From a virus (lineage: Duplodnaviria > Heunggongvirae > Uroviricota > Caudoviricetes), in the IMG/VR virus record IMGVR_UViG_2802429224_000017, positions 1 to 12,983 of that record: a stretch of DNA of 12,983 nt; one strand, written 5' to 3'. Within the stretch, counting starts at the first letter, position 1. Every line of letters starts with the position of its first letter. Made by a program: the position numbers and the translations under genes. Below, one piece after another: positions 1-12,983 of this stretch. The notes below the pieces were generated by a model. The model searched no databases. It was not told the origin of the DNA and worked only from the letters and a program-made list of their open reading frames with translations.

Positions 1-260
1 TTTTTTTAGATTTTCGTGCGCTTGATCGGATATATGATTTTTGCGGTTTTTGTTCGTTTTTCGGTTTTCGGTGGTCGCTGGTCGCTGGTCTGGCAGCATA
101 GGATCATCCTTTTTCGAAAATCAATGCTTTTTTTTGGAAAGTGCTTAAAAATTATCGTGCTGGCTGAATCAATAACCAGCAAAGGGTATTAAGTGTGGGT
201 GCGTTGAGGATGCCTGACACATCAGAGATGGCGGGAGATTACTCCCCCGCCTAGTCACTC

Positions 261-416
261 TTACTCTCTAGATTCGTAGTCTACGAAAACAGCGACCTCC
301 GTCTGGCCGGTTCGGATTCGTACCTCGCAGAGGTCTTTCCTCATTACCAGCGCCATCGCAATGACGGTTAAACAGATGACGATCAGGGCGATTAACATCG
401 CCTTTTGCTGCTTCAT
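261..416 (-). CDS. hok: Hok/Gef-family type I toxin, 51 aa small membrane protein
   Basis: Translation MKQQKAMLIALIVICLTVIAMALVMRKDLCEVRIRTGQTEVAVFVDYESRE is near-identical in length and sequence pattern to E. coli HokD/RelF and Gef as I recall them; single hydrophobic helix then conserved CEVRIRTGQTEVA motif; SD AAGGAG about 9 nt upstream of ATG at 416. Confidence 0.85.
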   Translation of the reverse strand: MKQQKAMLIALIVICLTVIAMALVMRKDLCEVRIRTGQTEVAVFVDYESRE

Positions 417-473
417 AGCCTGCTTCTCCTTGCCTTTCGGCACGTAAGAGGCTAACCTGATGTTGTCATGCAT
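261..473 (-). CDS. mok: Mok-like in-frame N-terminally extended reading frame overlapping hok (70 aa)
   Basis: In-frame ATG 19 codons upstream of hok ATG (MHDNIRLASYVPKGKEKQA + Hok) with GAGG 8 nt upstream; mirrors the mok/hok arrangement of known hok loci where Mok is an in-frame extension coupling hok translation (recalled, not verified). Confidence 0.45.
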   Translation of the reverse strand: MHDNIRLASYVPKGKEKQAMKQQKAMLIALIVICLTVIAMALVMRKDLCEVRIRTGQTEVAVFVDYESRE

Positions 474-590
474 AGGGAGCCTCAGATTAATGTTAAGCGT
501 CTTGCCGGACGCATAATGTTAACTGGGGCTTTTCTCTATCTGCCTTTTGGTGTTCATGCCTGAGACAGATAGCCTCAAGCACCCGCAACA

Positions 591-618
591 ATTCTACAAA
601 AAATCATCTCAATTTCAA
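591..618 (-). promoter_or_regulatory. Sigma70-type promoter (TTGAAA-16 bp-TAGAAT) immediately downstream of Q stop, reading toward hok; probable hok mRNA promoter
   Basis: On minus strand -35 TTGAAA (plus coords 613-618), 16-bp spacer, -10 TAGAAT (591-596); predicted start about 584 places the RNA 5-prime end at a sequence complementary to the region just beyond the hok 3-prime hairpin. Confidence 0.5.
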
Positions 619-620
619 TT

Positions 621-1031
621 TTACTGTATTTCTGCAACCGACCTTCCGGATGAGCCGCGCCCAACATATCTGTCCATTTCCAGTCTGATATCAAGCATCA
701 TCAACATCCCATCAACTACCCCTTCAGCCTTTTGCAATAAACGTCCAACCCAGCAATCGGAACGCCCATGCTTCTTTGCTAGTGCCATGAACGTCATTCC
801 GAACACATAGTAATCAACCAGTAAGTCATGTAAATCTTTGTTGTTCTTATTCAGCCTGGACATGCACCCGCAAATGACCATTGCGTCATCATCACTACAT
901 TGCGGACGTGATTTAACCTTTGACGGAATCAACCCCTTAAATCCGGCAGCAATGGACGACCAAGTAACATCCTCGTGGTTATTTGCCACCCATGCCCCCC
1001 ACCGTTCTAAAACCATCTGAATATCACGCAT
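621..1031 (-). CDS. Small Q-like late antiterminator (Phage_antitermQ-type, QuuD-like), 136 aa
   Basis: N-terminus [35 protein letters not shown] and Cys-rich [13 protein letters not shown] core match my recollection of small Q-family antiterminators of E. coli cryptic prophages; position downstream of the replication genes fits Q. Not verified by search. Confidence 0.6.
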
Positions 1032-1288
1032 CAGCGCAGTACCTCCTGCACCAGTTTTTCAAACTTACCAACTTTGGTTTCCAGCTCTGCCACACAATCC
1101 ACCAGCTCATCCACTGCTTTTTGTGCGCGATGTTTTGCCTGCATCAGTTCCCTGAGCGCTGGCACCATATCCCGACGAATGGCATCTTTTGTTACACCTG
1201 ATTTTTCCAGTTGTTCCGCCTGTCGCAACATTTCCTGTGCCTGTTTACGTAATTGCTCAGGGGTAAAAGTCATTGTCTGGTTGCTCAA
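1031..1288 (-). CDS. Hypothetical small coiled-coil protein (85 aa; alternative start at 1273)
   Basis: ORF on same strand as flanking genes, start overlaps DnaB-like stop (ATGA) and stop overlaps Q start; charged, helix-rich sequence; no recognisable family. Confidence 0.45.
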
Positions 1289-2676
1289 AAGAAACGCTCC
1301 ATCTTACTGCTGTCAGTTCGTTTGTTGCTGTATCTGCGCGGCTGGGGCTGCTGCATTGGGGTGGAAAGAATCTGTGCGCTTTCCTGATCCACAGGCAGAA
1401 AATGTCCGTTATAAAAACGCCGATAAATCGTCCCCAGAGAACCGTTACGTTGTTTCGTGATATTGATTTCTGCGATGCCCCTGGCCTGCGTATCCGGGTT
1501 GTACACTTCATCCCTGTAAAGCATCAGAATGATGTCTGCATCCGCCTCTATTTCTCCGGAATTTTTCAGGTCTGAGTTCATGGGGCGTTTATTGGGTCTG
1601 AACTCCACACCGCGGGAGAGCTGGCTCAGCGCAATCAACGGAAAACCACCGGATTTTGCCAGGCCTTTAAGCCCCTTTGAGATTTCACCAACGGCAAGGT
1701 CATGACGCCCCGTGGTTCGGGTTTTTATCAGTCCGAGATAATCAACCACCACCAGCGCCGTTTCCGGATGTTTAATCAGGTGGTGTTTCGTTGTTGCGCA
1801 TATCTCGTCAATGGTCAGGTTCGCCTGGTCCACCATCCAGATATTGCGCCCGGTCATCCGCCCCACTCCTTGTGAGAAACGTGCCCAGTCTTCGTCTTCA
1901 AAGTGAGCGACAGATTTCAGGCGTGATACCGGCATTCCTCCAGCCGCAGATACCATGCGTTCACCAATCTGGATGTTCGCCATTTCCATTGTGAACAGAA
2001 GAACACCATGCCCCTGCTCAGTCACCTTGTCGATGATATCCAGCGCCAGTTCGGTTTTGCCCATTGACGGACGAGCCGCAATAAATACCAGGTCGCCGGG
2101 CTCCATGCCGCCTGTTTTTGCGTCCAGTTCATCAATACCGGTCATCAACGTTCTGGATTTTTCCAGTCCCTGATTCCGGCATTCAACACGCTCAACCACT
2201 TCCGGAAGCACATCATCAATATGTACCGGCTGAATAACGCCCTTTTCCGTCGACAATGAGGCCATCATGTTCTGCGCATCCTTCAGGGCATCTTCAGCCG
2301 CTTCACAGGTATGCGCATCACGTAATTTCTGCAGCGCCTCATTCAGCGTTTTTTCTGCATCGCGCAATGCGGCATTGCGACGCAACGCCGCAACATAGTG
2401 CTCCAGTGAAGACTTCACCCAGGTTTTACGCCCGGTATCAGTAATCACCGGAGCAAGTTCCGGCATCTCATTACACAACAGCACAGGATCAATCACACCT
2501 GAAACACGGGCCTGTCTGCAGATGCCTGTGTAGATATCCCGATACGCTCGTACAGAAAAAACGTCCGCTGGCAGTGTGGCCAGAATATCCAACACTTCAG
2601 GATCTGCCCCACGCAGAAAGAACGCGCCAATGACAGCGCCTTCAAGGTCATCGTTACGCCAGACTGGTGTTGTCAT
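1285..2676 (-). CDS. DnaB-like replicative DNA helicase (463 aa from ATG at 2676)
   Basis: Walker A GDLVFIAARPSMGKTELALDI, later LVVVDYLGLI and RecA-fold motifs typical of the DnaB family; SD GAGGTG upstream of ATG 2676, which overlaps the stop of the upstream loader gene. The track start at 2715 is probably too far upstream. Confidence 0.85.
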   Translation of the reverse strand: MTTPVWRNDDLEGAVIGAFFLRGADPEVLDILATLPADVFSVRAYRDIYTGICRQARVSGVIDPVLLCNEMPELAPVITDTGRKTWVKSSLEHYVAALRRNAALRDAEKTLNEALQKLRDAHTCEAAEDALKDAQNMMASLSTEKGVIQPVHIDDVLPEVVERVECRNQGLEKSRTLMTGIDELDAKTGGMEPGDLVFIAARPSMGKTELALDIIDKVTEQGHGVLLFTMEMANIQIGERMVSAAGGMPVSRLKSVAHFEDEDWARFSQGVGRMTGRNIWMVDQANLTIDEICATTKHHLIKHPETALVVVDYLGLIKTRTTGRHDLAVGEISKGLKGLAKSGGFPLIALSQLSRGVEFRPNKRPMNSDLKNSGEIEADADIILMLYRDEVYNPDTQARGIAEINITKQRNGSLGTIYRRFYNGHFLPVDQESAQILSTPMQQPQPRRYSNKRTDSSKMERFF

Positions 2677-3563
2677 GCAGCCACACCTCTGATATGTACA
2701 CGGTAGCTTTCCCAACCAAACACCAGGCAGTTACGCCCACCATCAGTAACGCGATCCACAATCCGTTCACCAATGGACTCCTTAAGCTGGTCAAACGTCA
2801 GATTGCTGATCAAAATTGTCGGTAAAACGCTTTCGTAACGTGCATTGATGATTTCCTGCAGGATGGTTATCTCTGTTGGCGTACCGAACTGCACACCAAC
2901 CTCATCGATGATGAGCAGGTCCAGCGATACAAAATGGTCAATAACTTCATCTTCAGTGCGTTCAGAATTGTGACGCCAGGTATTTTTCACAGCGCGGGTC
3001 AGTCGCATGACATCCGTAATTTCGACAGTCGCCAGGTGGTGGCGAATAATATTTTTTGCCATTGATACAGCCAGGTGATTTTTCCCGGTACCGCAATTGC
3101 CAATCATGATCATGCTGGTACCCGCAGCAAGACACTTCTCCCATGAACTGGCATAGCGCCGACAAGCCTCAAGATTTCTCTGTGCGTCAGCATTCACAGC
3201 CTGGTAGTTCTCAAACTCGCAGTCCTGGAAGCGGCGGGCAATACCAGCTCTGTCAAGTAATTCATGAACTTTCAGGATGCGTAACGCCTCCTGTACCTGA
3301 TCCAGTTCATTCGCAATGCAGATCGGGCAACCAGACACCCGTTTGATGGTTTCCCCACGAACATCTGGCCCTTTCAACACCAGACGTGTGTATTTCCCGT
3401 GTTTCTCACACTCAGCAGTTTCCTCGCTTGTCAGCCAGTGTTCACAGCGCCACGGACGCTTCCCGGCACGGGCAAACTGCATCTCCTCCTCCAGTTCCGC
3501 CCTGCGGTTGAGCAATTGCGCTTTGTCGTGTTGTGCGTAGTGTTTTTTTAACTGTTCAAACAT
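2673..3563 (-). CDS. DnaC/IstB-like AAA+ helicase loader with Cys-rich N-terminal region (296 aa)
   Basis: Walker A GNCGTGKNHLAVSMA and Walker B LLIIDEVG; N-terminal CEHW...CEKH...CPIC arrangement suggests a zinc-binding module; SD GAGGTGA 7 nt upstream of ATG. Confidence 0.8.
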   Translation of the reverse strand: MFEQLKKHYAQHDKAQLLNRRAELEEEMQFARAGKRPWRCEHWLTSEETAECEKHGKYTRLVLKGPDVRGETIKRVSGCPICIANELDQVQEALRILKVHELLDRAGIARRFQDCEFENYQAVNADAQRNLEACRRYASSWEKCLAAGTSMIMIGNCGTGKNHLAVSMAKNIIRHHLATVEITDVMRLTRAVKNTWRHNSERTEDEVIDHFVSLDLLIIDEVGVQFGTPTEITILQEIINARYESVLPTILISNLTFDQLKESIGERIVDRVTDGGRNCLVFGWESYRVHIRGVAA

Positions 3564-3582
3564 TGTTCATCACCTCGAAAAA

Positions 3583-4392
3583 TCACCAGTTGAAGTTCGT
3601 TGAACCGTAGTCCTGCTCACTGAATCCCGAGATCGGGAGGCCGGTAGTTCGCCTACCTCCAGGAGCGGCTGGCTGTTGCCAGGATTCCTCGAAATGGCGA
3701 TCGGGTCCAAAGAACGTCGCGGCCTGCTTCACGAACTGTGTGCCGGTATTTCCTGTAGCACGTACCCAGGCGGCATACCGCTTCACGCCATCAAGCATGG
3801 TCTCCGGTTTTATTCCCTCCCTGATACGGGCTTTCCAGGCTTTGAAGGCTGCTGACTTGGAATTGCCACCAGCACGTTTGGGATATTCCTGCCAGGCCTG
3901 TTCAAATTCCGGTGAATATTCCTGTCGGGCAGAACGCGCTGGTGCAGACGCGTCAGCGGATGCGCCAATAGTTGATTCATTGACTGGTTCTTTGACTGGT
4001 TCAAAAGAGTGACTGGTTCTGGGTGAATCTCCTGCACTACCCCCTGGTGCAACTCCTGCACCACCTGGTGAATTTGCTGCACTAGGTAGTGAATTATTTG
4101 CACTACCACCTGGTGAATCTTTTGCACCATCAAGACGAAGAAGATAAATATTGCTCGAGTTCCCTTTTTCACCTTTCCGGGAAACTTTTTTTACCAGTCC
4201 AGATTCACAAAGAGCCGTAATATGATTCATCACAGAACGTTTGCTAATCTCGCACTGATCAGCAATATGCTGATAACTGGGCCAACACTCGCCCTGATCG
4301 CTGGCATTATCAGCCAGCTTAATCAGAACCAGTTTTCGCAACGGATTTCCCACACGAATTTTCATCGCTTTCACCATCAGGTCCATGCTCAT
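3583..4392 (-). CDS. Phage replication initiator-like protein: N-terminal winged-HTH domain, Pro/Gly/Ser-rich linker, C-terminal domain (269 aa)
   Basis: N-terminus LRKLVLIKLADNASDQGECWPSYQHIADQCEISKRSVMNHITALCESGLV is a typical replication-protein winged HTH; gene lies immediately upstream of the DnaC-like and DnaB-like genes; the linker is encoded by iteron-like DNA repeats. Confidence 0.6.
   Translation of the reverse strand: MSMDLMVKAMKIRVGNPLRKLVLIKLADNASDQGECWPSYQHIADQCEISKRSVMNHITALCESGLVKKVSRKGEKGNSSNIYLLRLDGAKDSPGGSANNSLPSAANSPGGAGVAPGGSAGDSPRTSHSFEPVKEPVNESTIGASADASAPARSARQEYSPEFEQAWQEYPKRAGGNSKSAAFKAWKARIREGIKPETMLDGVKRYAAWVRATGNTGTQFVKQAATFFGPDRHFEESWQQPAAPGGRRTTGLPISGFSEQDYGSTNFNW
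3981..4130. repeat. Iteron-like direct repeats inside the initiator gene (candidate origin of replication)
   Basis: Five roughly 22-bp direct repeats with consensus TGGTGAAT-n4-TGCACTACC at about 4020, 4044, 4065, 4087 and 4109, preceded by three copies of TGACTGGTTC (3981, 3993, 4010). This resembles the lambda arrangement of ori iterons within gene O. Confidence 0.5.
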
Positions 4393-4613
4393 AACACACC
4401 TCCCAGGCGTTTAAACATTTTTCCGGACTGAAACGCCATCAACGGATAGCTAATGGTGTAGTTACGCCCCAGTAATTCACACACAACTTTCTGGCTTTCG
4501 GTGCTGACCAGGCAAACACGCAGAACGTAGCCGTTGCTGGTGGCGAACCACTGCCCCACACGGGGGCAACGGTTGTATCGGTGACACAGGGAATTAACGA
4601 TGCGACGAATCAT
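4389..4613 (-). CDS. Hypothetical small Cys-containing protein (74 aa from ATG at 4613)
   Basis: ORF translationally coupled at both ends (ATGA overlaps with the 220-aa gene upstream and the initiator gene downstream); no family recognised. Confidence 0.4.
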   Translation of the reverse strand: MIRRIVNSLCHRYNRCPRVGQWFATSNGYVLRVCLVSTESQKVVCELLGRNYTISYPLMAFQSGKMFKRLGGVL

Positions 4614-5272
4614 GGGCGCACCTCCCATTGATTACGGCGGAAAGCGGTGTGACTGAGACTGGTTTCAGCCTCATGAAATGCTTCAATACAGCTCTCGTAG
4701 TACCGCATTGTGCGCAGACTTAACCCAAGCTGAAGCATCATCAGGCCATCAAGGGTGATGTAATAACCACGCAGGGAGTCACCATAGATGTGATAAGTGC
4801 CCGGTATGAAATTGCGGGTAAAAAAATCGCGCGAGCAGTTCAGATACTCGATTTTGTCGACGATGTTCTGGTGCATGCGCTTGAAGTGGCAGGCAACATG
4901 CAGGGAGAAAATAACAGCTTTGCCGTTGACGACTTCGATTTTCAGGTATGGGGAAGTTGGGACTGTAGCCATGATGGCAGCCTCCGATAACAGTGAATTA
5001 CCTTCACCACCGGAAACGCCAATTTCGCTGGTGGTGAACTGAACGGGGTTGGCGTAACCGGCGTTATCGGAAACCGGCGCACCTTTCGGTGCCCCCGTCC
5101 AGCCCACCATAATTTGGGTGTGCGCAGACGCAGACGACAAAAAAGACGCTGGCGCGTCATATATCGCCGATAACATTTCCAGGACGCCAATCCCGGCACC
5201 CGCTTTATAAGGTGCAGGGACAGTGTAACGTCCCGAAATTGCAGAATCAATATTTAGGCTTGAAACATTCAT
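4610..5272 (-). CDS. Hypothetical protein (220 aa), Gly/Ala/Ser-rich N-terminal half
   Basis: Longest ORF in the interval, same strand as the operon, stop overlaps the next start; no recognisable motifs. Confidence 0.5.
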   Translation of the reverse strand: MNVSSLNIDSAISGRYTVPAPYKAGAGIGVLEMLSAIYDAPASFLSSASAHTQIMVGWTGAPKGAPVSDNAGYANPVQFTTSEIGVSGGEGNSLLSEAAIMATVPTSPYLKIEVVNGKAVIFSLHVACHFKRMHQNIVDKIEYLNCSRDFFTRNFIPGTYHIYGDSLRGYYITLDGLMMLQLGLSLRTMRYYESCIEAFHEAETSLSHTAFRRNQWEVRP

Positions 5273-5350
5273 ATGCTTACTGGTATTTTTATTGATGTTC
5301 TTGGATTCTTGGGCCTGCTTTATGCAGTTGCCTGTATCAACGTTGAGCGA

Positions 5351-5375
5351 GCCGGGTCACTACCCGGCTTTTTTT
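5351..5375 (+). terminator. Intrinsic terminator-like hairpin (GCCGGGT-CACT-ACCCGGC followed by T7) in plus-strand orientation
   Basis: Perfect 7-bp GC-rich stem at 5351-5368 followed directly by TTTTTTT (5369-5375) on the plus strand, abutting the Rha stop codon; on the minus strand the hairpin is preceded by an A-run, so it may act bidirectionally or end an antisense RNA. Confidence 0.45.
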
Positions 5376-6082
5376 CACCGCTGCCAACCAATAACCTGAA
5401 ATAACCCCATTTTCGAGTGATACCAGCGAGTCCCTCGCGGTTCTGCTTCCTCCATAACCCGATAAAAAGCAGCCATAAACGGTTCCACGGCAACAATTGC
5501 ACGACGCGACAACAATCCGTCCGGCGTCATGAACTCGTGGGTATCGGTAGGAATTTGATAGGCATTCACCAGATTGCGGCATTTATCATCTGACAAACCG
5601 GTTTTCGCTTTCAGTTGGCGATATCCGGCATAGCCCTCACGAATGGTGCCCTTTTTGATTTGCTCAACTGTTTCGGCAACGTGGCTGACTTTTTCTTCCA
5701 CCTGAGTGATCCGTTTCTGCTGACGAACAGCTTCAAGAGCCATCGCAGCAACCATTTCGATTTCGCTCATTGGCTTACGGATCTGTTCTTCCAGTTCGCG
5801 CCAGCGATCTACCAGGCGAGCAGTGAATTCAGGACAGAGCTGTGCGACGACAATGATGCTGTCGCGCTTACCTTGTTCTCCTTCAAACAGGTAATGCTCA
5901 TATTGAACTTTAAAACCTAAGTTATTGATTCTTTCGGAAACCTCAATTTGAGGAGACCGGACAACGCCACCTTTGGCTAATGTTTCAATAGTGCGTTTCA
6001 CATTGTCATGACGTTTACCCACCAGCTCTGCAATTTCAACGCTGGTCATGGATACTTTGCCGTTAAAAATTGCGGTGTTCAT
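5375..6082 (-). CDS. Phage regulatory protein, Rha family (235 aa)
   Basis: N-terminus VSMTSVEIAELVGKRHDNVKRTIETL matches the conserved Rha (Phage_pRha) signature; sits directly downstream of the cro-like gene; SD AGGAGA upstream, start overlaps cro-like stop. Confidence 0.8.
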   Translation of the reverse strand: MNTAIFNGKVSMTSVEIAELVGKRHDNVKRTIETLAKGGVVRSPQIEVSERINNLGFKVQYEHYLFEGEQGKRDSIIVVAQLCPEFTARLVDRWRELEEQIRKPMSEIEMVAAMALEAVRQQKRITQVEEKVSHVAETVEQIKKGTIREGYAGYRQLKAKTGLSDDKCRNLVNAYQIPTDTHEFMTPDGLLSRRAIVAVEPFMAAFYRVMEEAEPRGTRWYHSKMGLFQVIGWQR

Positions 6083-6369
6083 TGTTTATCTCCTGCGTGT
6101 ATTCCATCCGCTCTGTGTGGTGAACTTGGATTTAGGCTTTTGCGTAACAAGTTAGGAATTCCATCTTCAGGGTGAGGATAAAGATCTGGCCTTAAGCCAT
6201 GAGGCGTAACCTTCCATGCAACTACTTCACATACTCGTAAAACGAAACGAGCAGGAATTGTGCTTTTTGAAAACCACTGATTCACCGCTTGCGGCGTCAC
6301 ACCAAGATTTCGCGCTATGGCATTTTGCGCAATTAATGCACGAAGTTTGTCGTAATCATTTCCTTTCAT
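6079..6369 (-). CDS. Cro-like HTH regulator of the YdaS type (96 aa)
   Basis: NLGVTPQAVNQWFSKSTIP...GLRPD resembles YdaS/Cro-type small HTH proteins; divergently transcribed from the cI-like repressor gene across a 133-bp AT-rich intergenic region. Confidence 0.65.
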   Translation of the reverse strand: MKGNDYDKLRALIAQNAIARNLGVTPQAVNQWFSKSTIPARFVLRVCEVVAWKVTPHGLRPDLYPHPEDGIPNLLRKSLNPSSPHRADGIHAGDKQ

Positions 6370-6502
6370 AACAAAGCACCAATATTAACTTTATAAATCA
6401 AGAATACATCAAGTTTAAATTAACATGCAAGTTGCAAAAGGATCGAATACACTAAAATCAAGTAAAGATTTATCCTTGTAAAGAAACCCACAGGATTTGG
6501 TC
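6370..6502. promoter_or_regulatory. Immunity-region intergenic control region (divergent cI-like and cro-like promoters, candidate operators)
   Basis: AT-rich 133-bp spacer between divergent repressor genes; repeated ATCAAG(T) motifs at 6397, 6408 and 6457 and the palindrome TGCAAGTTGCA at 6428-6438; exact -10/-35 elements not assigned with confidence. Confidence 0.5.
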
Positions 6503-7192
6503 ATGAAGAACGTCAAAAACACGGAAAATCGAATAGCCGCGATGCTGAAAGCAAAAGGATGGACTCAGGCTCAACTGGCCCGCAAGTTAGGTGTGAGTGC
6601 GCAATCAGTGCAGTACTGGACAACAGGAAAAACATTTCCACGGAGTGATAAGCTCGCGCATTTATCAGAGATTAGCGGTTATCCACAATCCTGGTTCTTA
6701 GGTGAAGACACCTCACCAACCTTTTCCTCGCAAGAGAAACACCAGACAAGAACAGATAGCGTCGTGTTTAATGTCCTTGATGTTGAGTTTAGTTGCGGTG
6801 ATGGAACTCATGTCCGTGGTGACTTGATAGATGTAGTGCGCTCAATAGAACTTGATCCTGAATATGCCCGACGTCTTGTTGGAAATCGGGCATTCAAAAA
6901 TATAGAAATAGGTAACGCCAGAGGAGACAGTATGGCTCCCACAATCTCACCTGGCGACCTTCTTTTTCTTGATAAGACAGTAACTTATTTTGATGGCGAT
7001 GGTATTTATGCATTTTGTTTTGATGGAGAATGCTACGTGAAAAGGCTTCAAAAAATTGGAAGCAAAATCATGGTGTTATCTGATAACCCCAATTATCAAC
7101 CATGGAGCATCGAAAAAGAGGGGTTAGCTCTGCTTTATATCCAGTCTAAAGTGATCTCATCAGTACCATTCAACATAAACAGATTTGGTTAG
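6503..7192 (+). CDS. cI-like prophage repressor (N-terminal XRE-type HTH, C-terminal LexA/S24 autopeptidase domain), 229 aa
   Basis: HTH WTQAQLARKLGVSAQSVQYW; C-terminal GDSMAP (catalytic Ser) and CYVKRL (Lys) dyad typical of LexA/cI/UmuD; AGGA 6 nt upstream of ATG at 6503 (the track used TTG at 6497). Confidence 0.9.
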   Translation: MKNVKNTENRIAAMLKAKGWTQAQLARKLGVSAQSVQYWTTGKTFPRSDKLAHLSEISGYPQSWFLGEDTSPTFSSQEKHQTRTDSVVFNVLDVEFSCGDGTHVRGDLIDVVRSIELDPEYARRLVGNRAFKNIEIGNARGDSMAPTISPGDLLFLDKTVTYFDGDGIYAFCFDGECYVKRLQKIGSKIMVLSDNPNYQPWSIEKEGLALLYIQSKVISSVPFNINRFG

Positions 7193-7203
7193 TCTTTGAT
7201 TTT

Positions 7204-7226
7204 AACGGGCTTTGCCCGTTTTTTTT
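7204..7226 (+). terminator. Rho-independent terminator downstream of the repressor gene
   Basis: AACGGGC-TTT-GCCCGTT hairpin (7204-7220) followed by a run of 8 T, 12 nt after the repressor stop codon. Confidence 0.7.
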
Positions 7227-7256
7227 CTGCCTGAAATATACGATATCAATTTTTTC

Positions 7257-7285
7257 TTGACAGCCTATTTCCCAAAGCATAATAT
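7257..7285 (+). promoter_or_regulatory. Near-consensus sigma70 promoter (TTGACA-17 bp-TAATAT), pL-like early-left promoter
   Basis: TTGACA at 7257-7262, 17-bp spacer, TAATAT at 7280-7285; dyad ATCAAT-n7-TTGAT (7292-7308) overlaps the predicted start and is a candidate operator. Confidence 0.6.
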
Positions 7286-7338
7286 CGCACCATCAATTAT
7301 AACTTGATTTGATTCAATTTAAAATTGTTGGTGGATAT

Positions 7339-7887
7339 ATGAAGACACTAAAAGCAACTCCAGAAACAACTAATTTTATCAACTGCGGCTGTGTTACGCT
7401 TAAGGGCTTAGAACTTGATTCCTTTGCATTAAATATTGCAAATTTGCTAAGTGCTGTACGCACATTCCATCTTCTGGATTGTGCTCGCTCAAAGGAACTG
7501 GGCATTGAGGTAATGGAATTTATCCATGAATATGCTCTATCTGCTGCTTCTCCTGCACAACAAAAACAATCCTTCCCTGAAAGCTGGCTGGTTAACCTTC
7601 GCACCCAACGCGAAGCCTGCGGCTTAACAACCGCCGAACTCGCCAGGCTGCTCGCTCTTGATGAAGAAATCATCATCCAGTGGGAGAGCGGAGAGTATGA
7701 ACCAACCATCAGTATGCTTATCCCACTGGCAAATATTCTTGGCTGCGATCCGATGTGGCTGTTAACTGGTGAGGTTACTCCTCCGGAGCAACCAAAAAGT
7801 GAGGAGCAGCAACACCATGACGCATCTCAACAAGTTTGCTCCTTATCTCGCGAAGCTCTTCTACGGAAGAACCAATACCAATGGTGA
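7339..7887 (+). CDS. Two-domain protein: unknown N-terminal domain plus C-terminal XRE-family HTH (182 aa)
   Basis: C-terminal LTTAELARLLALDEEIIIQWESGEYEPTISMLIPLANILGCDPMWLL is an XRE-type HTH; N-terminal roughly 90 aa share a domain with the next gene; first gene after the pL-like promoter; GGTGGA upstream of ATG 7339. The C-terminal 37 codons overlap a minus-strand ORF with a good SD. Confidence 0.55.
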   Translation: MKTLKATPETTNFINCGCVTLKGLELDSFALNIANLLSAVRTFHLLDCARSKELGIEVMEFIHEYALSAASPAQQKQSFPESWLVNLRTQREACGLTTAELARLLALDEEIIIQWESGEYEPTISMLIPLANILGCDPMWLLTGEVTPPEQPKSEEQQHHDASQQVCSLSREALLRKNQYQW

Positions 7888-8015
7888 CATAATCGCCGCT
7901 TCGCCCCTCAAGGTACATGCGAACATTTTTATCAATCATTGCGGAAACAGTCTCAATATGAAAACACTTCTGAGACTCGCTATATAGCAGAACATATAAG
8001 TCAGCTGAGGAAGCC

Positions 8016-8381
8016 ATGAAAAAGTTCGAAAACATAACTGTTCTCCATGTTGATGACTTTGATTATACAAACCCGGACCTTCTCCCGGAGGTTGTAAAGG
8101 CAATAGATGTTGCCGATATAGTGATTAGAGGAAAGAGAATTGTCAAAAACAGGCTCGCATGCACTTCAGGAGCAATGACAGAAACAACCTCACAACAAGA
8201 TGATTATGAAGGCATTTGTCCGGAGCCTGATTCATTTGCGGTAAATGTTTATCATTTATTGCATGCAACACAGGTATTACATATGTCCAGTAATCACGAA
8301 ACAAAAGCACTTGGCAGCGAAATTCTGAATTTTGCATGTGAATATGCAAAAGCTGCTGCCGAAAAAGAATTAGCGCAATAA
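8016..8381 (+). CDS. Hypothetical protein (121 aa) whose C-terminal about 50 aa are paralogous to the N-terminal domain of the preceding HTH protein
   Basis: By-eye alignment DSFAVNVYHLLHATQVLHMSSNHETKALGSEILNFACEYAKAAA versus DSFALNIANLLSAVRTFHLLDCARSKELGIEVMEFIHEYALSAA (about 22 of 47 identical); SD GAGGAAG upstream. Confidence 0.55.
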   Translation: MKKFENITVLHVDDFDYTNPDLLPEVVKAIDVADIVIRGKRIVKNRLACTSGAMTETTSQQDDYEGICPEPDSFAVNVYHLLHATQVLHMSSNHETKALGSEILNFACEYAKAAAEKELAQ

Positions 8382-8577
8382 CAATAAATATTCCCTGAAT
8401 GTTTATTACGGTTTTATCGCCGGGGATTGTTGCAACCTTTATTCGCAGGAGATTATGTTATGACTTTCCTGAAACATAAGGCATCGTATAAAACTGCCTG
8501 CCTCATTGCACAACATGGAGATTCTTATCTTCATATAGCCAACCTGTATTTGCGCAAAGCATATGGGAGATAAATAA

Positions 8578-8766
8578 ATGAAAGAAAAACAACAGAATAT
8601 AACACATAAAAAAGTAAGAGTGTTGCTAACCATTGAAAATGGTGAAGTAATTTACTCAAAACATCTGCTGGATAATGAATTCGTTGGCTGCATGGATACA
8701 TTTCTGTGGATGGCAAAAAGAGCTGGCTACACGATTATTCCACCAGCAAAGGAGCAAATATTATGA
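8578..8766 (+). CDS. Hypothetical small protein (62 aa)
   Basis: GGGAGA 7 nt upstream of ATG; stop overlaps the start of the next gene (ATGA), indicating translational coupling. Confidence 0.45.
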   Translation: MKEKQQNITHKKVRVLLTIENGEVIYSKHLLDNEFVGCMDTFLWMAKRAGYTIIPPAKEQIL

Positions 8767-9344
8767 ATCATTCAGAGTTCCGACCAGAAGTAACGCCACA
8801 TGGCATAAAAATTGGTAATACAACCATTGATTATATTCAGGCCGTACAGCGGCTTAATGATGGCGAATTCGATAATCCATACTGGCACGGTTTAAGAATC
8901 ATGCAATGTCTTGCCGAAGCTGATGATGCCGGATTGCTGGGAAGATTTTCAGTCGATCTGAAGGTTGCTCAGTGGCGCTGGCTGTATGTGATGAAGTTTA
9001 TCAGTGAAGAGGAAGACAAGAACGGCACTATTGATATCCCTAACGATAACGGGACGACAGATCGCGCAGTTATTTACAAGGGGAAACATGGTTGCATAAG
9101 TATATACCCAGGACCACTTCGCATTGCCCTGCAAAACCATGTCGAATGGGGATTTATTGAAAAATATGGCGAAACTGAAGGCATGGGGCGAGTTCTGTTT
9201 CTATATCAAAAAATGCTCATTGCAGATCTTGATAATGGTTTCATTCTCTCTGCTATGGGGCGCGAAGGGCTTGAACTCCTTCTGGATAAAATGATTAACG
9301 ACCTGAATACTCATGGTATGCCAGAAGCGCCAGTGACACATTAA
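8763..9344 (+). CDS. Hypothetical protein (193 aa from ATG at 8763)
   Basis: AAGGAG 7-8 nt upstream of ATG 8763 (the track start at 8706 lacks an SD); ORF uninterrupted for 193 codons; no family recognised. Confidence 0.6.
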   Translation: MNHSEFRPEVTPHGIKIGNTTIDYIQAVQRLNDGEFDNPYWHGLRIMQCLAEADDAGLLGRFSVDLKVAQWRWLYVMKFISEEEDKNGTIDIPNDNGTTDRAVIYKGKHGCISIYPGPLRIALQNHVEWGFIEKYGETEGMGRVLFLYQKMLIADLDNGFILSAMGREGLELLLDKMINDLNTHGMPEAPVTH

Positions 9345-9520
9345 ATATTAAGAAGAAAATAACTCTTCCGTTTTTTACTAACCGTTTATATGAAAAGCAA
9401 CCGTGAATTAAACAGAGTAAAACTGATTTTAATCCTTGCCACAGTACTGACACTAACTGAAATCATTATTCTCTTTATTGCGCTGTCAGTCGGTTAAAAA
9501 TATCGGGATACCACAGACCA

Positions 9521-9709
9521 ATGAGACTGTATTTCACAATAGTAATTTTACTGGCAATTATCGCATGCATTTACGGATTACTTGTTCCGTTCCTTATATC
9601 CATGAAGGATACGATAGCAGTTATTTCTGGCTTTGCACTGGCGTTTCTGACCCCGCCCTGCATTTATGCCATTTACAAGGGTCTTTCTTTCACTAAGGAT
9701 AAAAGATGA
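9521..9709 (+). CDS. Small two-helix integral membrane protein (62 aa), translationally coupled to the SPFH lipoprotein gene
   Basis: Two hydrophobic stretches (FTIVILLAIIACIYGLLVPFLI and AVISGFALAFLTPPCIYAIY); stop TGA overlaps the ATG of the downstream gene (ATGA at 9706-9709). Confidence 0.45.
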   Translation: MRLYFTIVILLAIIACIYGLLVPFLISMKDTIAVISGFALAFLTPPCIYAIYKGLSFTKDKR

Positions 9710-10533
9710 AAAAAATCATTTTTGCTTTAGCCATTGTTCTGCCGACTATTGGCCTTGTCGGTTGCGATCGCGTTGAACCAGGTAATGTTGGCATCAAGGT
9801 AAATAAACTGGGCGACGACAAAGGCGTCGGTGAGGTGGTCGGTGTTGGTCGCTACTGGACTGGCTGGAATACTGAAGTTTATATCTTCCCCACCTTCAAA
9901 CAAATGAAGACCTACGATGAACCGTTCAGTTTCCAGATGAGTGACGGTACAACCATCGGCTATCACATTGGCGTAGCCTACAAAGTTGATCCATCCAAAG
10001 TTACCACGGTGTTTCAGACCTACCGCAAAGGCGTGGATGACATTACAGACACCGACCTGCGCCAGAAGATCGCCGACGCACTCAACCGACTGGCCAGCAA
10101 AATGACCACTGACAAATTTATCGACGGCGGCAAGTCTGAGCTGCTGGATGAAGCTCTTAAAGACATTCAGGCAGAGATGACACCTATCGGTATTCAGGTA
10201 ATGAGCCTCTCATATGTGGGTAAGCCGGAGTACCCGCCTACTGTTATCGACAGCATTAATGCCAAAGTCACGGCGAACCAGAAAACACTGCAGCGCGAGC
10301 AGGAAGTTAAACAGCGCGAAGCGGAAGCCAACATGTTGCGCGCGGAAGCTGCCGGACAGGCTGATGCGATTCGCACAAAAGCCCAGGCTGAAGCCGACGC
10401 CATTCGTTTACGCGGTGAAGCTCTGCGCCAGAACCCCGGTGTTATGGAGCTGGAAGCCATCAATAAATGGAACGGCACACTGCCGCAATACATGACCAGC
10501 GGTGCTAATACACCATTTATCCAGGTTAAATAA
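9706..10533 (+). CDS. SPFH/band-7 (stomatin-prohibitin-flotillin-HflKC) domain lipoprotein, predicted inner-membrane anchored (275 aa)
   Basis: Signal peptide with lipobox LVGC (Cys20) followed by Asp at +2; central SPFH-like core and C-terminal Ala/Glu/Arg-rich coiled coil (REQEVKQREAEANMLRAEAAGQADAIRTKAQAEADAIRLRGEALRQ) characteristic of band-7 proteins. Confidence 0.8.
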   Translation: MKKIIFALAIVLPTIGLVGCDRVEPGNVGIKVNKLGDDKGVGEVVGVGRYWTGWNTEVYIFPTFKQMKTYDEPFSFQMSDGTTIGYHIGVAYKVDPSKVTTVFQTYRKGVDDITDTDLRQKIADALNRLASKMTTDKFIDGGKSELLDEALKDIQAEMTPIGIQVMSLSYVGKPEYPPTVIDSINAKVTANQKTLQREQEVKQREAEANMLRAEAAGQADAIRTKAQAEADAIRLRGEALRQNPGVMELEAINKWNGTLPQYMTSGANTPFIQVK

Positions 10534-10573
10534 CTTATATGCCCGGCAGGCCGCCGGGCTAAGGGAAATGCAG

Positions 10574-10945
10574 ATGAACACCCAGAATACTCAACCGCAA
10601 ATAATGAACTATGACCCAAATCTGACGTCATGCGGACGCATGGCAAAACAAACCGTTCGATTAACTTTCGGACTATGGGAATACCGCGAAACATTCGAAG
10701 TCACTGTCGGCGGCAATCTGACCGGACTGGATGTTATCAGTTGCGCTATTGAAAGCCTGTACGCAACGCTACCTTATGAAGAAGTCCAGAATGAGCGCAC
10801 AGGGAGAACGGATATCATGGCTACCATTAATATTGGCGAACTGACATGCCAGGATGAAGACCTGTCCGGAGAGCTCTGGCTTGCCGGGATGCTTATCTCA
10901 GCAGAAATTATCAGTATTGAACCCGCTATAAACATACGGCTCTGA
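10574..10945 (+). CDS. Hypothetical protein (123 aa from ATG at 10574)
   Basis: AAGGGA 7 nt upstream of ATG 10574; the track start at 10502 would overlap the SPFH gene and a GC-rich hairpin; no family recognised. Confidence 0.5.
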   Translation: MNTQNTQPQIMNYDPNLTSCGRMAKQTVRLTFGLWEYRETFEVTVGGNLTGLDVISCAIESLYATLPYEEVQNERTGRTDIMATINIGELTCQDEDLSGELWLAGMLISAEIISIEPAINIRL

Positions 10946-10976
10946 AGTTCTCACTATTCAGAGGGCAGGAGAAAAA

Positions 10977-11219
10977 ATGTTCGCTTTGATTAATCAGGGA
11001 CAACTGTATACCGACAGTGCCGGTTACCCGGTAAAAATTATTCGCTGCATAAATAACACAGTGTTGTACAAAAGAATGGATGGGCGAACACAGTCGGTAA
11101 AAATAAACGATTTTAATGAACTGTTTGAACGACTCGATCACCAGGAATACCGACAAATTCTGGCAGAAACAGAACAGGAAACTCATCTGAAAAAATTACG
11201 GGCTATGAAAAGGAAATAA
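10977..11219 (+). CDS. Hypothetical small protein (80 aa)
   Basis: GGAG-containing SD (GGCAGGAGAAAAAATG) upstream; compact basic/acidic small protein typical of xis-proximal phage genes. Confidence 0.5.
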   Translation: MFALINQGQLYTDSAGYPVKIIRCINNTVLYKRMDGRTQSVKINDFNELFERLDHQEYRQILAETEQETHLKKLRAMKRK

Positions 11220-11222
11220 AGA

Positions 11223-11369
11223 ATGAACAAAGCGTTTGAGCTATGGGTACGCCAGCGTTACGGCAATCGCTATGACCTGACGCGAGATGTTGACGGTTTC
11301 TACTGCCGTGAAATTGTGAAACGAATGTTTGAAGTGTGGTGCCACTGCCGTGGGCTGAGTGTTGTGTGA
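11223..11369 (+). CDS. Hypothetical very small protein (48 aa), below the ORF-track length cutoff
   Basis: Manual translation from ATG 11223: MNKAFELWVRQRYGNRYDLTRDVDGFYCREIVKRMFEVWCHCRGLSVV, stop TGA 11367-11369; AAAGGAAA upstream; fills the gap between the flanking genes on the same strand. Confidence 0.3.
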   Translation: MNKAFELWVRQRYGNRYDLTRDVDGFYCREIVKRMFEVWCHCRGLSVV

Positions 11370-11377
11370 GGTAATGC

Positions 11378-11614
11378 ATGGGCAATGTGATTCAACTGGC
11401 TCCCAATGAATGGGTTTGTGAAAGCGTTCTTATCGCAATTACCGGGCTCAAACCAGGCACAATTCTCCGGGCCCGGAAAGAATGCTGGATGGTAGGAAGA
11501 GAGTATATTCACGTATCGCCTGACGGTAATCCAAAACCTTCCAGCGAATGTATGTATAACAGAAAAGCAATCGATGCCTGGGTCGCTTCAATGAAAAACA
11601 AACAACCCAGGTGA
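11378..11614 (+). CDS. xis: Excisionase-like protein (78 aa)
   Basis: Small protein immediately upstream of the integrase on the same strand; sequence consistent with the enterobacterial prophage excisionase-like family; GAGGT 7 nt upstream of ATG. Confidence 0.65.
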   Translation: MGNVIQLAPNEWVCESVLIAITGLKPGTILRARKECWMVGREYIHVSPDGNPKPSSECMYNRKAIDAWVASMKNKQPR

Positions 11615-11669
11615 TTTAATACCATGAAATATGTAAGCTCGTATCGCTCTTGGGCGTCTGGAGGTATCG

Positions 11670-12983
11670 ATGGATAAAGTCAAATATCCAACAGGCGTCG
11701 AAAACCACGGTGGCACATTACGCATCTGGTTTAATTTTAAAGGTAAACGTGTCAGGGAAAACCTTGGTGTCCCTGACACTGCCAAGAACAGGAAGATCGC
11801 CGGAGAGCTGCGGACATCTGTATGTTTTGCCATTCGTACAGGAAACTTTGATTACGCTGCGCAGTTCCCTGACTCTCCTAACCTCAGGGCTTTTGGGGTA
11901 AATAAAAAAGAAATTACGGTGAAAGAGCTTGAAGAAAAGTGGCTGGATCTGAAACGCATGGAAATCTCTGCAAATGCATTCAATCGCTATGAATCCGTTG
12001 CAAGAACGATGGTTCCGAAAATTGGAGGTAGCAGACTGGTGTCAACGGTGACCAAAGAGGAATTGCTGTATATCAGGAAAGATTTGCTGACCGGATATCA
12101 GAATTCAACGAAAGACAAAGCACCAGCAAGAGGACGGAGCGTCGTTACTGTAAATTATTATATGACGACAATCGCTGGAATGTTTCAGTTTGCTGCAGAT
12201 CACGGTTACTTAGAAGCAAATCCCTTCGAGGGAATTAAGCCTCTTAAAAGAGCCAGGGCAGAGCCAGATCCGCTAACTCGTGACGAATTTATTCGCCTGA
12301 TAGATGCTTGCCGGCATCAGCAGACAAAAAACCTGTGGTCATTGGCTGTGTACACAGGAATGCGTCATGGTGAACTGGTCTCCCTGGCCTGGGAAGATAT
12401 CGATCTGAAAGCAGGAACAATTACTATCAGGCGCAATTATACGAAACTCGGTGAGTTCACTCTACCTAAAACTGAAGCAAGTACAAACAGGGTTGTGCAT
12501 CTTATCCAGCCCGCTATCAGTGTCCTGAAAAATCAGGCTGAAATGACAAGACTGGGTAAGCAGCACCACATCAAGGTTCAACTACGTGAATATGGACGTT
12601 CAGTGAATCATGAATGTACTTTCGTATTTAACCCCCAGGTGGTTAGAAAAAGCAAACAGGTAGGTTTTATCTACAAGGTAGATTCCATTGGCGACTCATG
12701 GGAAACAGCCATTAAACGTGCAGGCATCAGGCATCGAAAGGCATACCAGTCACGACACACTTATGCGTGCTGGTCATTATCTGCCGGAGCAAATCCAAGC
12801 TTCATTGCCAGCCAGATGGGCCATGCAAGTGCCCAGATGGTGTTCAATGTATACGGAGCATGGATGACTGACAGCAATGCAGAACAGATCGCAATGCTGA
12901 ATCAGAAGCTGGCAGATTATGTCCCAATGATGTCCCATAGTCACCAAAGTGACACAAGAGGCCTATTAAAATCAGTGGGTTAG
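11670..12983 (+). CDS. int: Tyrosine-family site-specific integrase (437 aa)
   Basis: C-terminal catalytic region with conserved Arg (GMRHGE), His-x-x-Arg (SRHTYA) and Tyr nucleophile (VYGAW); GGAGGT SD; stop TAG is the last three bases of the window. Confidence 0.9.
   Translation: MDKVKYPTGVENHGGTLRIWFNFKGKRVRENLGVPDTAKNRKIAGELRTSVCFAIRTGNFDYAAQFPDSPNLRAFGVNKKEITVKELEEKWLDLKRMEISANAFNRYESVARTMVPKIGGSRLVSTVTKEELLYIRKDLLTGYQNSTKDKAPARGRSVVTVNYYMTTIAGMFQFAADHGYLEANPFEGIKPLKRARAEPDPLTRDEFIRLIDACRHQQTKNLWSLAVYTGMRHGELVSLAWEDIDLKAGTITIRRNYTKLGEFTLPKTEASTNRVVHLIQPAISVLKNQAEMTRLGKQHHIKVQLREYGRSVNHECTFVFNPQVVRKSKQVGFIYKVDSIGDSWETAIKRAGIRHRKAYQSRHTYACWSLSAGANPSFIASQMGHASAQMVFNVYGAWMTDSNAEQIAMLNQKLADYVPMMSHSHQSDTRGLLKSVG

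Follow-up and report, generated by a model that had tools for sequence, protein, structure and literature searches.

The stretch of DNA analyzed here (the window) comprises positions 1 to 12,983 of the IMG/VR virus record IMGVR_UViG_2802429224_000017 (Caudoviricetes), 12,983 nucleotides (nt) in all. Its minus strand carries a gene for a replication initiator of 269 amino acids (aa). The subject of this report is a candidate replication origin inside that gene: an array of five dyad-symmetric repeats (iterons) in the part encoding the interdomain linker, followed by a short element of GAACCAGTCA repeats. The features of the gene are given below in gene direction, with the support for each coding part (ORF, open reading frame; AF2, AlphaFold2 model).

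3583-4392, minus strand: replication initiator, 269 aa (ORF and translation, Pfam, PHROG, AF2 model)
4132-4392, minus strand: N-terminal winged-helix DNA-binding domain, aa 1-87 (AF2, Foldseek, covariation)
4111-4129: iteron 1, first in gene direction, TGGTGAATCTTTTGCACCA
4087-4105: iteron 2, TAGTGAATTATTTGCACTA
4066-4084: iteron 3, TGGTGAATTTGCTGCACTA
4045-4063: iteron 4, TGGTGCAACTCCTGCACCA, with perfect inverted arms of 7 base pairs (bp)
4021-4039: iteron 5, the last, abutting the conserved element, GGGTGAATCTCCTGCACTA
3981-4020: family-wide conserved element, in gene orientation AGAACCAGTCACTCTTTTGAACCAGTCAAAGAACCAGTCA, three GAACCAGTCA copies
3583-3924, minus strand: C-terminal helical domain and tail, aa 157-269 (AF2 helices 161-213; PHROG)

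The AF2 model of the initiator showed an N-terminal winged helix, a disordered linker and a helical C-terminal domain. The winged helix (aa 1-86, predicted local distance difference test score, pLDDT, of 80-92) has helices at aa 17-29, 40-47 and 51-64 and wing strands at aa 67-72/80-85; it was the only one predicted, and aa 51-64 (4201-4242 in the window) form the predicted recognition helix. The linker (aa 93-156) had pLDDT values of <50. The helical C-domain (aa 157-225) is presumed to be the partner-recruiting module. Pfam HTH_36 matched aa 17-67 (E = 2.5e-11; 43.6 bits vs. a cut-off of 25), and PHROG 270, "replication initiation protein," matched aa 3-261 (phrog_270, E = 2.1e-88). The PHROG labels "DnaD-like helicase loader" and "primosomal protein" matched aa 127-262, and the DnaD_N domain scored 24.4 bits, under its cut-off of 27. 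Foldseek returned only generic winged helix-turn-helix folds for the model, among them the plasmid Rep-DNA structures 5kbj and 4pql; a sequence search against solved structures found nothing.

The repeat unit of the array was a 19-bp near-palindrome, T(G/A)GTG(A/C)A-N5-T(G/T)CAC(C/T)A, present in five copies at 4021-4129 with spacings of 24, 21, 21 and 24 bp, about two helical turns. A preliminary description of the sequence had reported five direct repeats of about 22 bp at two-turn spacing inside the initiator gene. The five repeats and their spacing were recovered, but the unit is the 19-bp dyad. The degenerate pattern RGTGMANNNNNTKCACY matched six times in 12,983 bp, compared with 0.01 matches expected (0 of 200 shuffles); five matches fell in the array and one was solitary, at 4992-5008. 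The looser consensus of the preliminary description matched 12 times vs. 2.6 expected, a count also reached by 0 of 200 shuffles. The 21-24-bp array escaped Tandem Repeats Finder because the arms alone are conserved and the 5-bp spacers are not; that program reported only a 12-bp period at 3976-4003. The iterons occupy gene nt 264-372 and encode aa 88-124; the winged helix (aa 1-87) precedes them and the C-domain (aa 157-225) follows. Together with the adjoining TGACTGGTTC copies, the array encodes aa 88-137, a Gly/Ser/Ala/Pro-rich stretch predicted to be disordered, in agreement with the low-complexity linker described previously.

The solitary match, AGTGAATTACCTTCACC (4992-5008), is a sixth iteron-like palindrome inside the upstream Ash/Rha-like gene; its distance to the array is approximately 860 bp and that to a match to C4 RNA 19 bp. 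Five IMG/VR contigs (L054, L060, L112, L113 and L122) had the site as well, approximately 800-1100 bp from the array, which may reflect co-inheritance with the Ash-like gene; the solitary site is possibly a product of chance.

When aa 86-126 were recoded synonymously with the operon's own codon usage (5000 replicates), pairwise identity between units fell from the observed 14.4 of 19 positions to 8.8 ± 0.6, and the number of dyad pairs fell from 5.6 of 7 to 2.7 ± 0.4. Neither observed value was reached in any replicate (0/5000), so that the question raised in the preliminary description, whether the DNA is conserved more strongly than the protein requires, was answered in the affirmative. Both arms of the iterons were conserved and the 5-bp spacer was not, which is the signature of a binding site and not of recent duplication. 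In relatives from Pseudomonas, Providencia and Erwinia, the same or a similar unit had successive spacings of 23 and 22 bp, and therefore one copy is read in another frame. In a Pseudomonas locus (L135), the product of GTAGTGCAGGAGATKCACC is SAGDAPG for one copy and VVQEIHQ for the following copy, and the unit was likewise read in two frames in L160, L170 and L168. The linker peptides differed wholly by lineage (SPGGSAN, PPSDRMS, GGAGAA, PPMPSDGT, PVPPEST, GSENFAL, VGPEST and others), yet the DNA phasing and dyad symmetry persisted. Thus, the repeats are DNA signals conserved beyond the protein requirement and not a by-product of the peptide.

Genes related to the initiator were present in 1230 of 5426 complete Escherichia coli genomes and in SfV, mEp460, cdtI and the Shiga toxin (Stx) phages that convert for Stx2c/Stx2a; the initiator of PhiR49_2 was 97.6% identical to that of the window over aa 1-248, and E. 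coli WAT (NZ_CP012380) had a gene with 98% identity. A total of 5710 homologous protein clusters were found, all named only "helix-turn-helix domain-containing protein." For comparison we used 13 phage homologues found by tblastn and 80 genome loci selected by two N-terminal peptide patterns only (from Pseudomonas, Enterobacter, Proteus, Rahnella, Xenorhabdus, Providencia, Erwinia, Aeromonas, Shewanella, Marinomonas, Marinobacter, Microbulbifer, Cardiobacteriaceae and others). Two to eight dyad-symmetric units of approximately 19 bp were located at gene nt ~260-400 in 13 of 13 phage homologues and in approximately 70 of the 80 genome homologues, and the last spacing was almost always 24 bp. 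This comparison with orthologues, also suggested earlier, placed the array at the same position of the gene in hosts that include E. coli, Salmonella, Klebsiella, Serratia, Stenotrophomonas, Vibrio, Pseudomonas, Aeromonas, Shewanella and others.

Iteron copy number was polymorphic: there were eight units in cdtI, five in the window and in mEp460, one to five in Min27-type arrays and seven in L139; L091 and L126 were also examined. The changes were always frame-preserving blocks, such as the 66-bp duplication of three units in cdtI (L002, gene nt 264-438). In Pseudomonas bharatica (L153) and Erwinia tracheiphila (L177), the initiator ORF ends inside the conserved element (...HPEPVTLLNQ*) and would give an N-domain-only product, because an indel in the iteron array (gene nt ~270-400) shifts the frame; these could be pseudogenes, assembly errors or functional truncations.

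The iteron consensus was lineage-specific, with many different sequences, and tracked the predicted recognition helix (aa 51-64); aa 49-64 are the variable part of an otherwise highly conserved N-domain. Helices of the types ...SVMNHI... and ...SVINHI... paired with GTGMA-N5-TKCAC, the type shared by the window and other Asn56 lineages with a near-identical helix. The R56 helix ...(S/T)(V/A)MR(H/A)... paired with GTGAC-N5-GTCAC (Erwinia, Izhakiella, Vibrio phage D160 and mEp010), ...DRSTVRKHIK... with GTAGGCCCAGAAAGCAC, ...CSKSAVRxHI... with TATGCCGCCAAAAAGCA and ...VSRSTVKSHIR... with GGGGCAGGAGCTGCCC. Iteron distance was correlated with helix distance over aa 49-64 (Mantel test, r = 0.71), and the correlation remained when the rest of the N-domain was taken into account (partial r = 0.65, matched by 0 of 2000 permutations). 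These pairings suggest that the iteron sequence is type-specific and matched to the specificity of the N-domain of the initiator.

The element next to the last iteron followed a different rule. The three copies of TGACTGGTTC noted in the preliminary description were present exactly three times in the window (3981, 3993 and 4010), but they constitute a separate, family-wide element and not part of the iteron set. Their count alone was marginally above chance (0.70 expected; three reached by 5 of 200 shuffles). In gene orientation the element reads AGAACCAGTCACTCT-nnn-GAACCAGTCA-nn-GAACC and abuts the last iteron as near-identical DNA across lineages, with two and a half GAACCAGTCA copies in most relatives and conservation at the nucleotide level over approximately 35 bp across Gammaproteobacteria. 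Codons were compared among ten homologues approximately 55-70% identical in the N-domain (95% for mEp460): pairwise codon identity was 1.0 in the element vs. approximately 0.4 in the N-domain, where synonymous codons are used freely. The residues Arg-Thr-Ser-His-Ser...Glu-Pro-Val...Glu were encoded by AGA, ACC, AGT, CAC, TCT, GAA, CCA, GTC and GAA in nine of nine lineages (AGT for Ser in eight of eight). Entropy at the three codon positions (79 sequences) was 0.39/0.27/1.31 bits in the N-domain and 0.21/0.13/0.13 bits in the core of the element.

With no more than 6 of 35 mismatches, the element was found in 70 of the 80 loci, which had been picked by N-domain similarity only. A pattern scan of IMG/VR recovered it in at least 120 contigs, always inside this initiator family and directly after the array. 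Its variants were transitions with radical protein changes (T to I and P to S, giving RISHSFESV). The first copy was in another frame in Shewanella and Parashewanella (L185, L187, L205 and L209), and both copies were in another frame in mEp010 (L013). The element was also the deepest consistent GC dip around the array (0.10-0.15 relative, 70 loci). It is under frame-independent, nucleotide-level purifying selection, and it is the one less expected feature of the locus; an iteron origin inside an O-like gene is unsurprising to a specialist.

Positions 3981-4129 are most probably the replication origin of a lambdoid prophage, located inside the linker-coding part of its own initiator gene as in lambda. 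This lambda-like placement, already proposed in the preliminary description, was supported, computationally only, by the recoding test and the DNA-level constraint that it revealed, the reading of the unit in two frames, the conserved position of the array, the covariation with the recognition helix and the lambdoid neighbourhood. The mechanism was modelled by analogy with lambda (PMC7466680; PMC5043065). N-terminal winged-helix dimers would bind the five phased 19-bp dyads (4021-4129) and form a wrapped complex similar to the O-some. The strain from wrapping would open the DNA adjoining the last iteron; the best candidate for this DNA is the GAACCAGTCA-repeat element (3981-4020), which would serve as the half of the origin common to the family. 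The C-terminal domain would then recruit the DnaC-like loader and the DnaB-like helicase encoded just downstream, and early rightward transcription through the site may assist. From this analogy we infer that the initiator binds the iterons, that the element unwinds, that the helicase is recruited and that the segment is active as an origin.

Our guess that the element is the common half of the origin, for unwinding or loading, was prompted by four of its properties: it abuts the last iteron at a fixed geometry, it occupies the same position as the AT-rich tract of lambda, its short direct repeats resemble the 13-mers of oriC and RK2, in which the exact sequence matters (PMC5043065), and it coincides with the deepest GC dip. 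A more specific version can be offered only tentatively: the element (GAAYCAGTCA repeat, 3981-4020) may be a sequence-specific, family-wide "common core" that replaces the AT-rich tract of lambda and is read, as single- or double-stranded DNA, by an invariant face of the N-domain (aa 1-48) or by a host factor found throughout Gammaproteobacteria. If this were true, thousands of prophages would share a two-part origin code made of variable iterons with a variable helix and a fixed 10-mer repeat.

The exchange of modules among relatives also speaks for an origin at this site. The N-domain, the array and the element travel as one module, and the C-domain with the helicase genes. Alignments of the N-module stopped at or just after the element (aa 136-143). 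In Stx2_499 and Stx1_699 (L215/L216), a different N-domain was joined to the C-domain of the window, and their genes had no element; the C-module shared with Stx2_499 starts after it, at TIGAS. Because the element is absent in Stx2_499 and the shared sequence starts past it, it belongs to the N-domain/iteron module. The C-module of these two phages was followed by two genes similar in size and position to the loader and helicase genes of the window (annotated as "DNA helicase" and "replication protein"; by annotation). By analogy with the junctions to the right of the lambda iterons, the site of the element may be the recombination joint between N- and C-modules.

The N-domain of Stx2_499 and Stx1_699 (MRPSDLLLDFGHPV...) represented a third, unrelated initiator N-domain. 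Their genes had repeats of their own at gene nt 330-500, first GGGAAAC-type and then three copies of ACAGAGAATAC, so that the design of iterons plus short direct repeats in the linker recurs in another family. The last ~25 residues of the initiator (3583-3660 in the window) differed by partner genes: the tail ...GLPISGFSEQDYGSTNFNW occurred in the window, Stx2_499 and relatives, followed by DnaC-like and DnaB-like genes, and the tail ...YDNVDYSQIPAGFRG in mEp460, cdtI, sal3 and relatives without helicase genes (L001/L002/L012 compared). The difference hints at a role of the tail in specifying the replication partner.

Several observations weigh against an origin at 3981-4129 or against opening at the element. 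No experimental evidence for this initiator family was found in the literature searched. The initiator did not match Pfam Phage_rep_O at E ≤ 0.01 or the NCBIfam initiator models. Physical linkage and shared ancestry could inflate the correlation between helix and iteron. There was no strongly AT-rich tract at the array: the element had 40% GC and 4130-4200 had 39%, in a window of 46.5% GC. More AT-rich DNA was found outside the gene, at 3540-3600 (34% GC) and 5250-5310 (28% GC). Finally, the array had no DnaA box, integration host factor (IHF) consensus site or GATC cluster, an absence that is neutral for the mechanism, and the element could instead function in RNA or be kept as a recombination joint.

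The moderately AT-rich stretch that the preliminary description had pointed to at 4130-4200 proved unremarkable: it was only at the 19th percentile, and the flanks of the array, with 39-40% GC, were at the 19th-27th percentile of equal-sized windows. This stretch encodes the wing of the winged helix (rich in Lys, Asn, Gly and Ser) and showed ordinary synonymous drift, except for the Tyr codon TAT (nine of nine). A promoter scan of 3400-4700 found no promoter-like site; a terminator scan of the same region found one hairpin (3717-3734), which was not above shuffles and lay outside the array and element. Neither the array nor the element matched an Rfam family. Three further candidates were rejected. 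The inverted ACCAGT copies upstream in the gene (I5 and I6) were attributed to chance, as relatives show free codon variation at those positions. A -1 frameshift at TCT TTT G, which would give an N-domain-only product, was considered by inspection and discarded: the middle triplet varies (TTT, TTA, CTT, TCT and GTT) and the stop is not conserved. A resemblance of CACTCTTTT to BoxA/nut, also judged by inspection, was rejected for the same variability.

Among the alternatives, the one that survives best concerns the element, which would be conserved as the joint of homologous recombination between the N- and C-modules or as an mRNA signal (structure, small RNA target or translational signal) and would not be part of the origin. 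The end of the N-module alignments at the element, the many different C-domains downstream of it and the recombination junctions that the lambda annotation places just right of its iterons all agree with a joint, and an RNA signal fits frame-independent conservation equally well. However, selection for exchangeability is a second-order effect, unlikely to freeze approximately 30 nt of synonymous sites in Vibrio, Pseudomonas, Shewanella and Enterobacterales, and the codons that flank the element drift freely. The same C-module occurs without the element in Stx2_499, neither an Rfam family nor a promoter-like or terminator-like site was present at the element, and the direct 10-mers abut the last iteron in the manner of the oriC and RK2 13-mers (PMC5043065). 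We regard this explanation as unlikely.

It is distinctly improbable that the array binds the initiator only for control (titration, handcuffing or operon autoregulation) and that unwinding or the start of replication takes place at another site, such as the AT-rich intergenic DNA at 3540-3600 or 5250-5310. Neither flank of the array was strongly AT-rich, the solitary site at 4992-5008 could allow looping, and plasmid iterons have control roles (PMC5043065). Against control alone, the array and element move with the N-domain at a fixed geometry in all lineages (last spacing of 24 bp, element abutting), whereas the intergenic neighbours are not conserved and the upstream and downstream genes differ between relatives; moreover, the equivalent arrays are the origin in lambda and P22.

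That the repeats are a mere by-product of slippage in a low-complexity Gly/Ser/Pro linker, with any selection acting on the protein, is strongly disfavoured and has hardly any probability left: the five units of the window are in one frame (spacings that are multiples of three) and specify heptapeptides that resemble one another (xSAxxSP), disorder is predicted for the linker and copy number varies among relatives as slippage would produce, but synonymous recoding never reproduced the DNA identity and dyad symmetry (0/5000), the arms are conserved and the spacers are not, relatives read the unit in two frames, and the peptides change completely between lineages while phasing and symmetry stay.

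Circular extrachromosomal records of approximately 41-46 kb carry the initiator module; they are compatible with autonomous replication of an origin inside the initiator gene and are no proof of it. Circular "plasmid" records of 28-48 kb with this initiator included NZ_CP118695.1 (L299), NZ_CP148393.1, NZ_CP098024.1 and CP080634.1, and ten Arsenophonus nasoniae plasmids (e.g., L300) also carried it; most plasmid records were typed as non-mobilizable. The Klebsiella pneumoniae plasmid pKPTCM2-4 (41.5 kb, no replicon type) had the initiator, the DnaC-like and DnaB-like genes and then RusA and Q. These plasmid records may be phage-plasmids or captured replicating phage genomes.

The neighbouring genes of the window were as follows.

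6497-7192, plus strand: cI-like S24 repressor
6079-6369: cro-like gene
5375-6082 and 4610-5272: two Rha/Ant/Ash-type regulators
4389-4628: small ORF
2673-3563, minus strand: DnaC/IstB-like AAA+ helicase loader, directly downstream of the initiator (Pfam IstB_IS21, 1.3e-15; PHROG 50, 4e-83)
1285-2715, minus strand: DnaB-family replicative helicase (Pfam DnaB_C, 4e-72; TIGR00665, 7e-92)
621-1031: Q antiterminator

The match of the loader gene to the NCBIfam DnaC-like model was under the cut-off. The window is the immunity and early-right region of a lambdoid prophage, with the early-right operon on the minus strand. The succession of repressor, cro-like gene, Rha/Ant-type regulators, initiator, DnaC-like gene, DnaB-like gene and Q is the lambdoid order, and the replication module is lambdoid. 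Three RNA matches were found elsewhere in the window, all on the minus strand. C4 antisense RNA (5027-5114, 82.8 bits) and the Hfq-binding small RNA isrK (5139-5215, 63.7 bits) were Rfam gathering-level matches, both within the 5' part of the Ash/Rha-like ORF at 4610-5272, and the pair looks like a P1/P7-type c4-ant immunity RNA module in a lambdoid early operon. A full-length match to the sok antitoxin RNA (411-584, 117.5 bits) adjoins the Q antiterminator gene (621-1031) and suggests a hok/sok-type toxin-antitoxin locus in the prophage.

Annotation pipelines call the initiator gene only a "helix-turn-helix domain-containing protein" and mark no origin. The present analysis gives a probable position for the origin of a prophage replication module that is very common across Gammaproteobacteria but uncharacterised. 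It also yields a specificity table of recognition helix vs. iteron that can be tested by swaps, and synonymous mutations could tell apart what the same nucleotides do as DNA and what they do through the protein. In the frozen GAACCAGTCA element, coding and non-coding constraints overlap cleanly, and it offers a way to study how origins that lack an AT-rich tract open.

The replication proteins of SfV (orf39), mEp460, cdtI and the Stx2c/Stx2a-converting phages belong to the same family (73-81% aa identity) and have the same iteron type. Their records name only a "replication protein" or "helix-turn-helix protein," with no origin or iterons annotated. In the literature searched, whose coverage was incomplete and left older genome papers outside, no description of the iterons or of the GAACCAGTCA element of this family was found, and a full-text search for the motif strings returned unrelated primers only. 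SfV, mEp460 and cdtI share the N-module and iterons of the window, but their C-terminal tail is different and they lack genes for the loader and helicase, as would be expected of exchangeable modules. The initiator gene of the window may be the "Eru2A" of Stx2c phages, to which it was likened by description (PMC8044961): Eru2A is a 273-aa replication protein of these phages (Llarena et al. 2021, PMC8044961), and that paper mentions no origin or iterons for it.

Iteron plasmids offer a more distant comparison. Their iterons lack dyad symmetry, and the origin of the RepA_N plasmids of Firmicutes is also inside repA. The window differs from iteron plasmids in its palindromic and intragenic units, in having no DnaA box near the array and in its single winged helix. 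The N-domains of plasmid Rep proteins (5kbj and 4pql) were nevertheless among the winged helices of the fold search. Plasmid iterons bind initiator monomers, and most such origins are outside the rep gene and use DnaA boxes (PMC5043065). In RK2 (oriV/TrfA), F, P1 and R6K, as well as in oriC, phased sites stand beside short direct repeats, as in the window, and in those systems the repeats form the unwinding element and their exact sequence matters (PMC5043065).

Closer parallels are found among phages. For lambda O, P22 gp18 and phage L gp18, the initiator's own iterons are reported to lie within its coding region (PMC8022706; PMC7466680; lambda and P22 annotations), and the principle of an intragenic iteron origin is thus already known. 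Gene 18 of P22 and of phage L and the initiator gene of the window have type-specific iterons inside the ORF, and P22, like the window, has a phage DnaB-type helicase (gene 12) downstream. However, P22 gp18 has a lambda-O-type N-domain, iterons of the form TCGGTAAAA-N-TTTACCGA and a clearly AT-rich tract. In the annotated P22 origin (L218, 1841-1985), GAATCAGTCA occurs right after the last iteron and before the AT-rich tract and matches the T-variant of the element; the likeness is ambiguous because it overlaps the degenerate P22 iteron half CCGAATCGGTAAA, and it may be a coincidence.

In lambda the origin is located mid-gene, as is the candidate origin of the window, between a DNA-binding N-domain and a partner-binding C-domain. 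Lambda, the Stx phages 933W/P27 and the window have four to six dyad-symmetric iterons of approximately 19 bp spaced 20-24 bp apart (20, 24 and 23 in lambda; 24, 21, 21 and 24 in the window), at aa 117-145 of O and aa 88-124 of the initiator of the window. Copy number varies likewise, with four iterons in lambda vs. six in 933W/P27 (PMC7466680), and extra iterons add residues to the protein in the lambda type and in the window. Origins of Stx phages have been cloned on a pir-dependent R6K vector (PMC7466680). In both lambda and the window, the last iteron is followed directly, on its 3' side in gene direction, by a second segment of the origin (a proposed one in the window), and in lambda this segment beside the iterons contains recombination junctions, as proposed for the window. 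The segment of the window consists of GAACCAGTCA direct repeats at 40% GC and, unlike that of lambda, is not AT-rich or purine-asymmetric, and a DnaC-like loader with the phage's own DnaB-like helicase stands in place of lambda P. The initiator of the window was not detectably related to lambda O or P22 gp18 (BLASTP gave only spurious short matches, best E = 0.014). By analogy, it may work like O without being a member of the O family.

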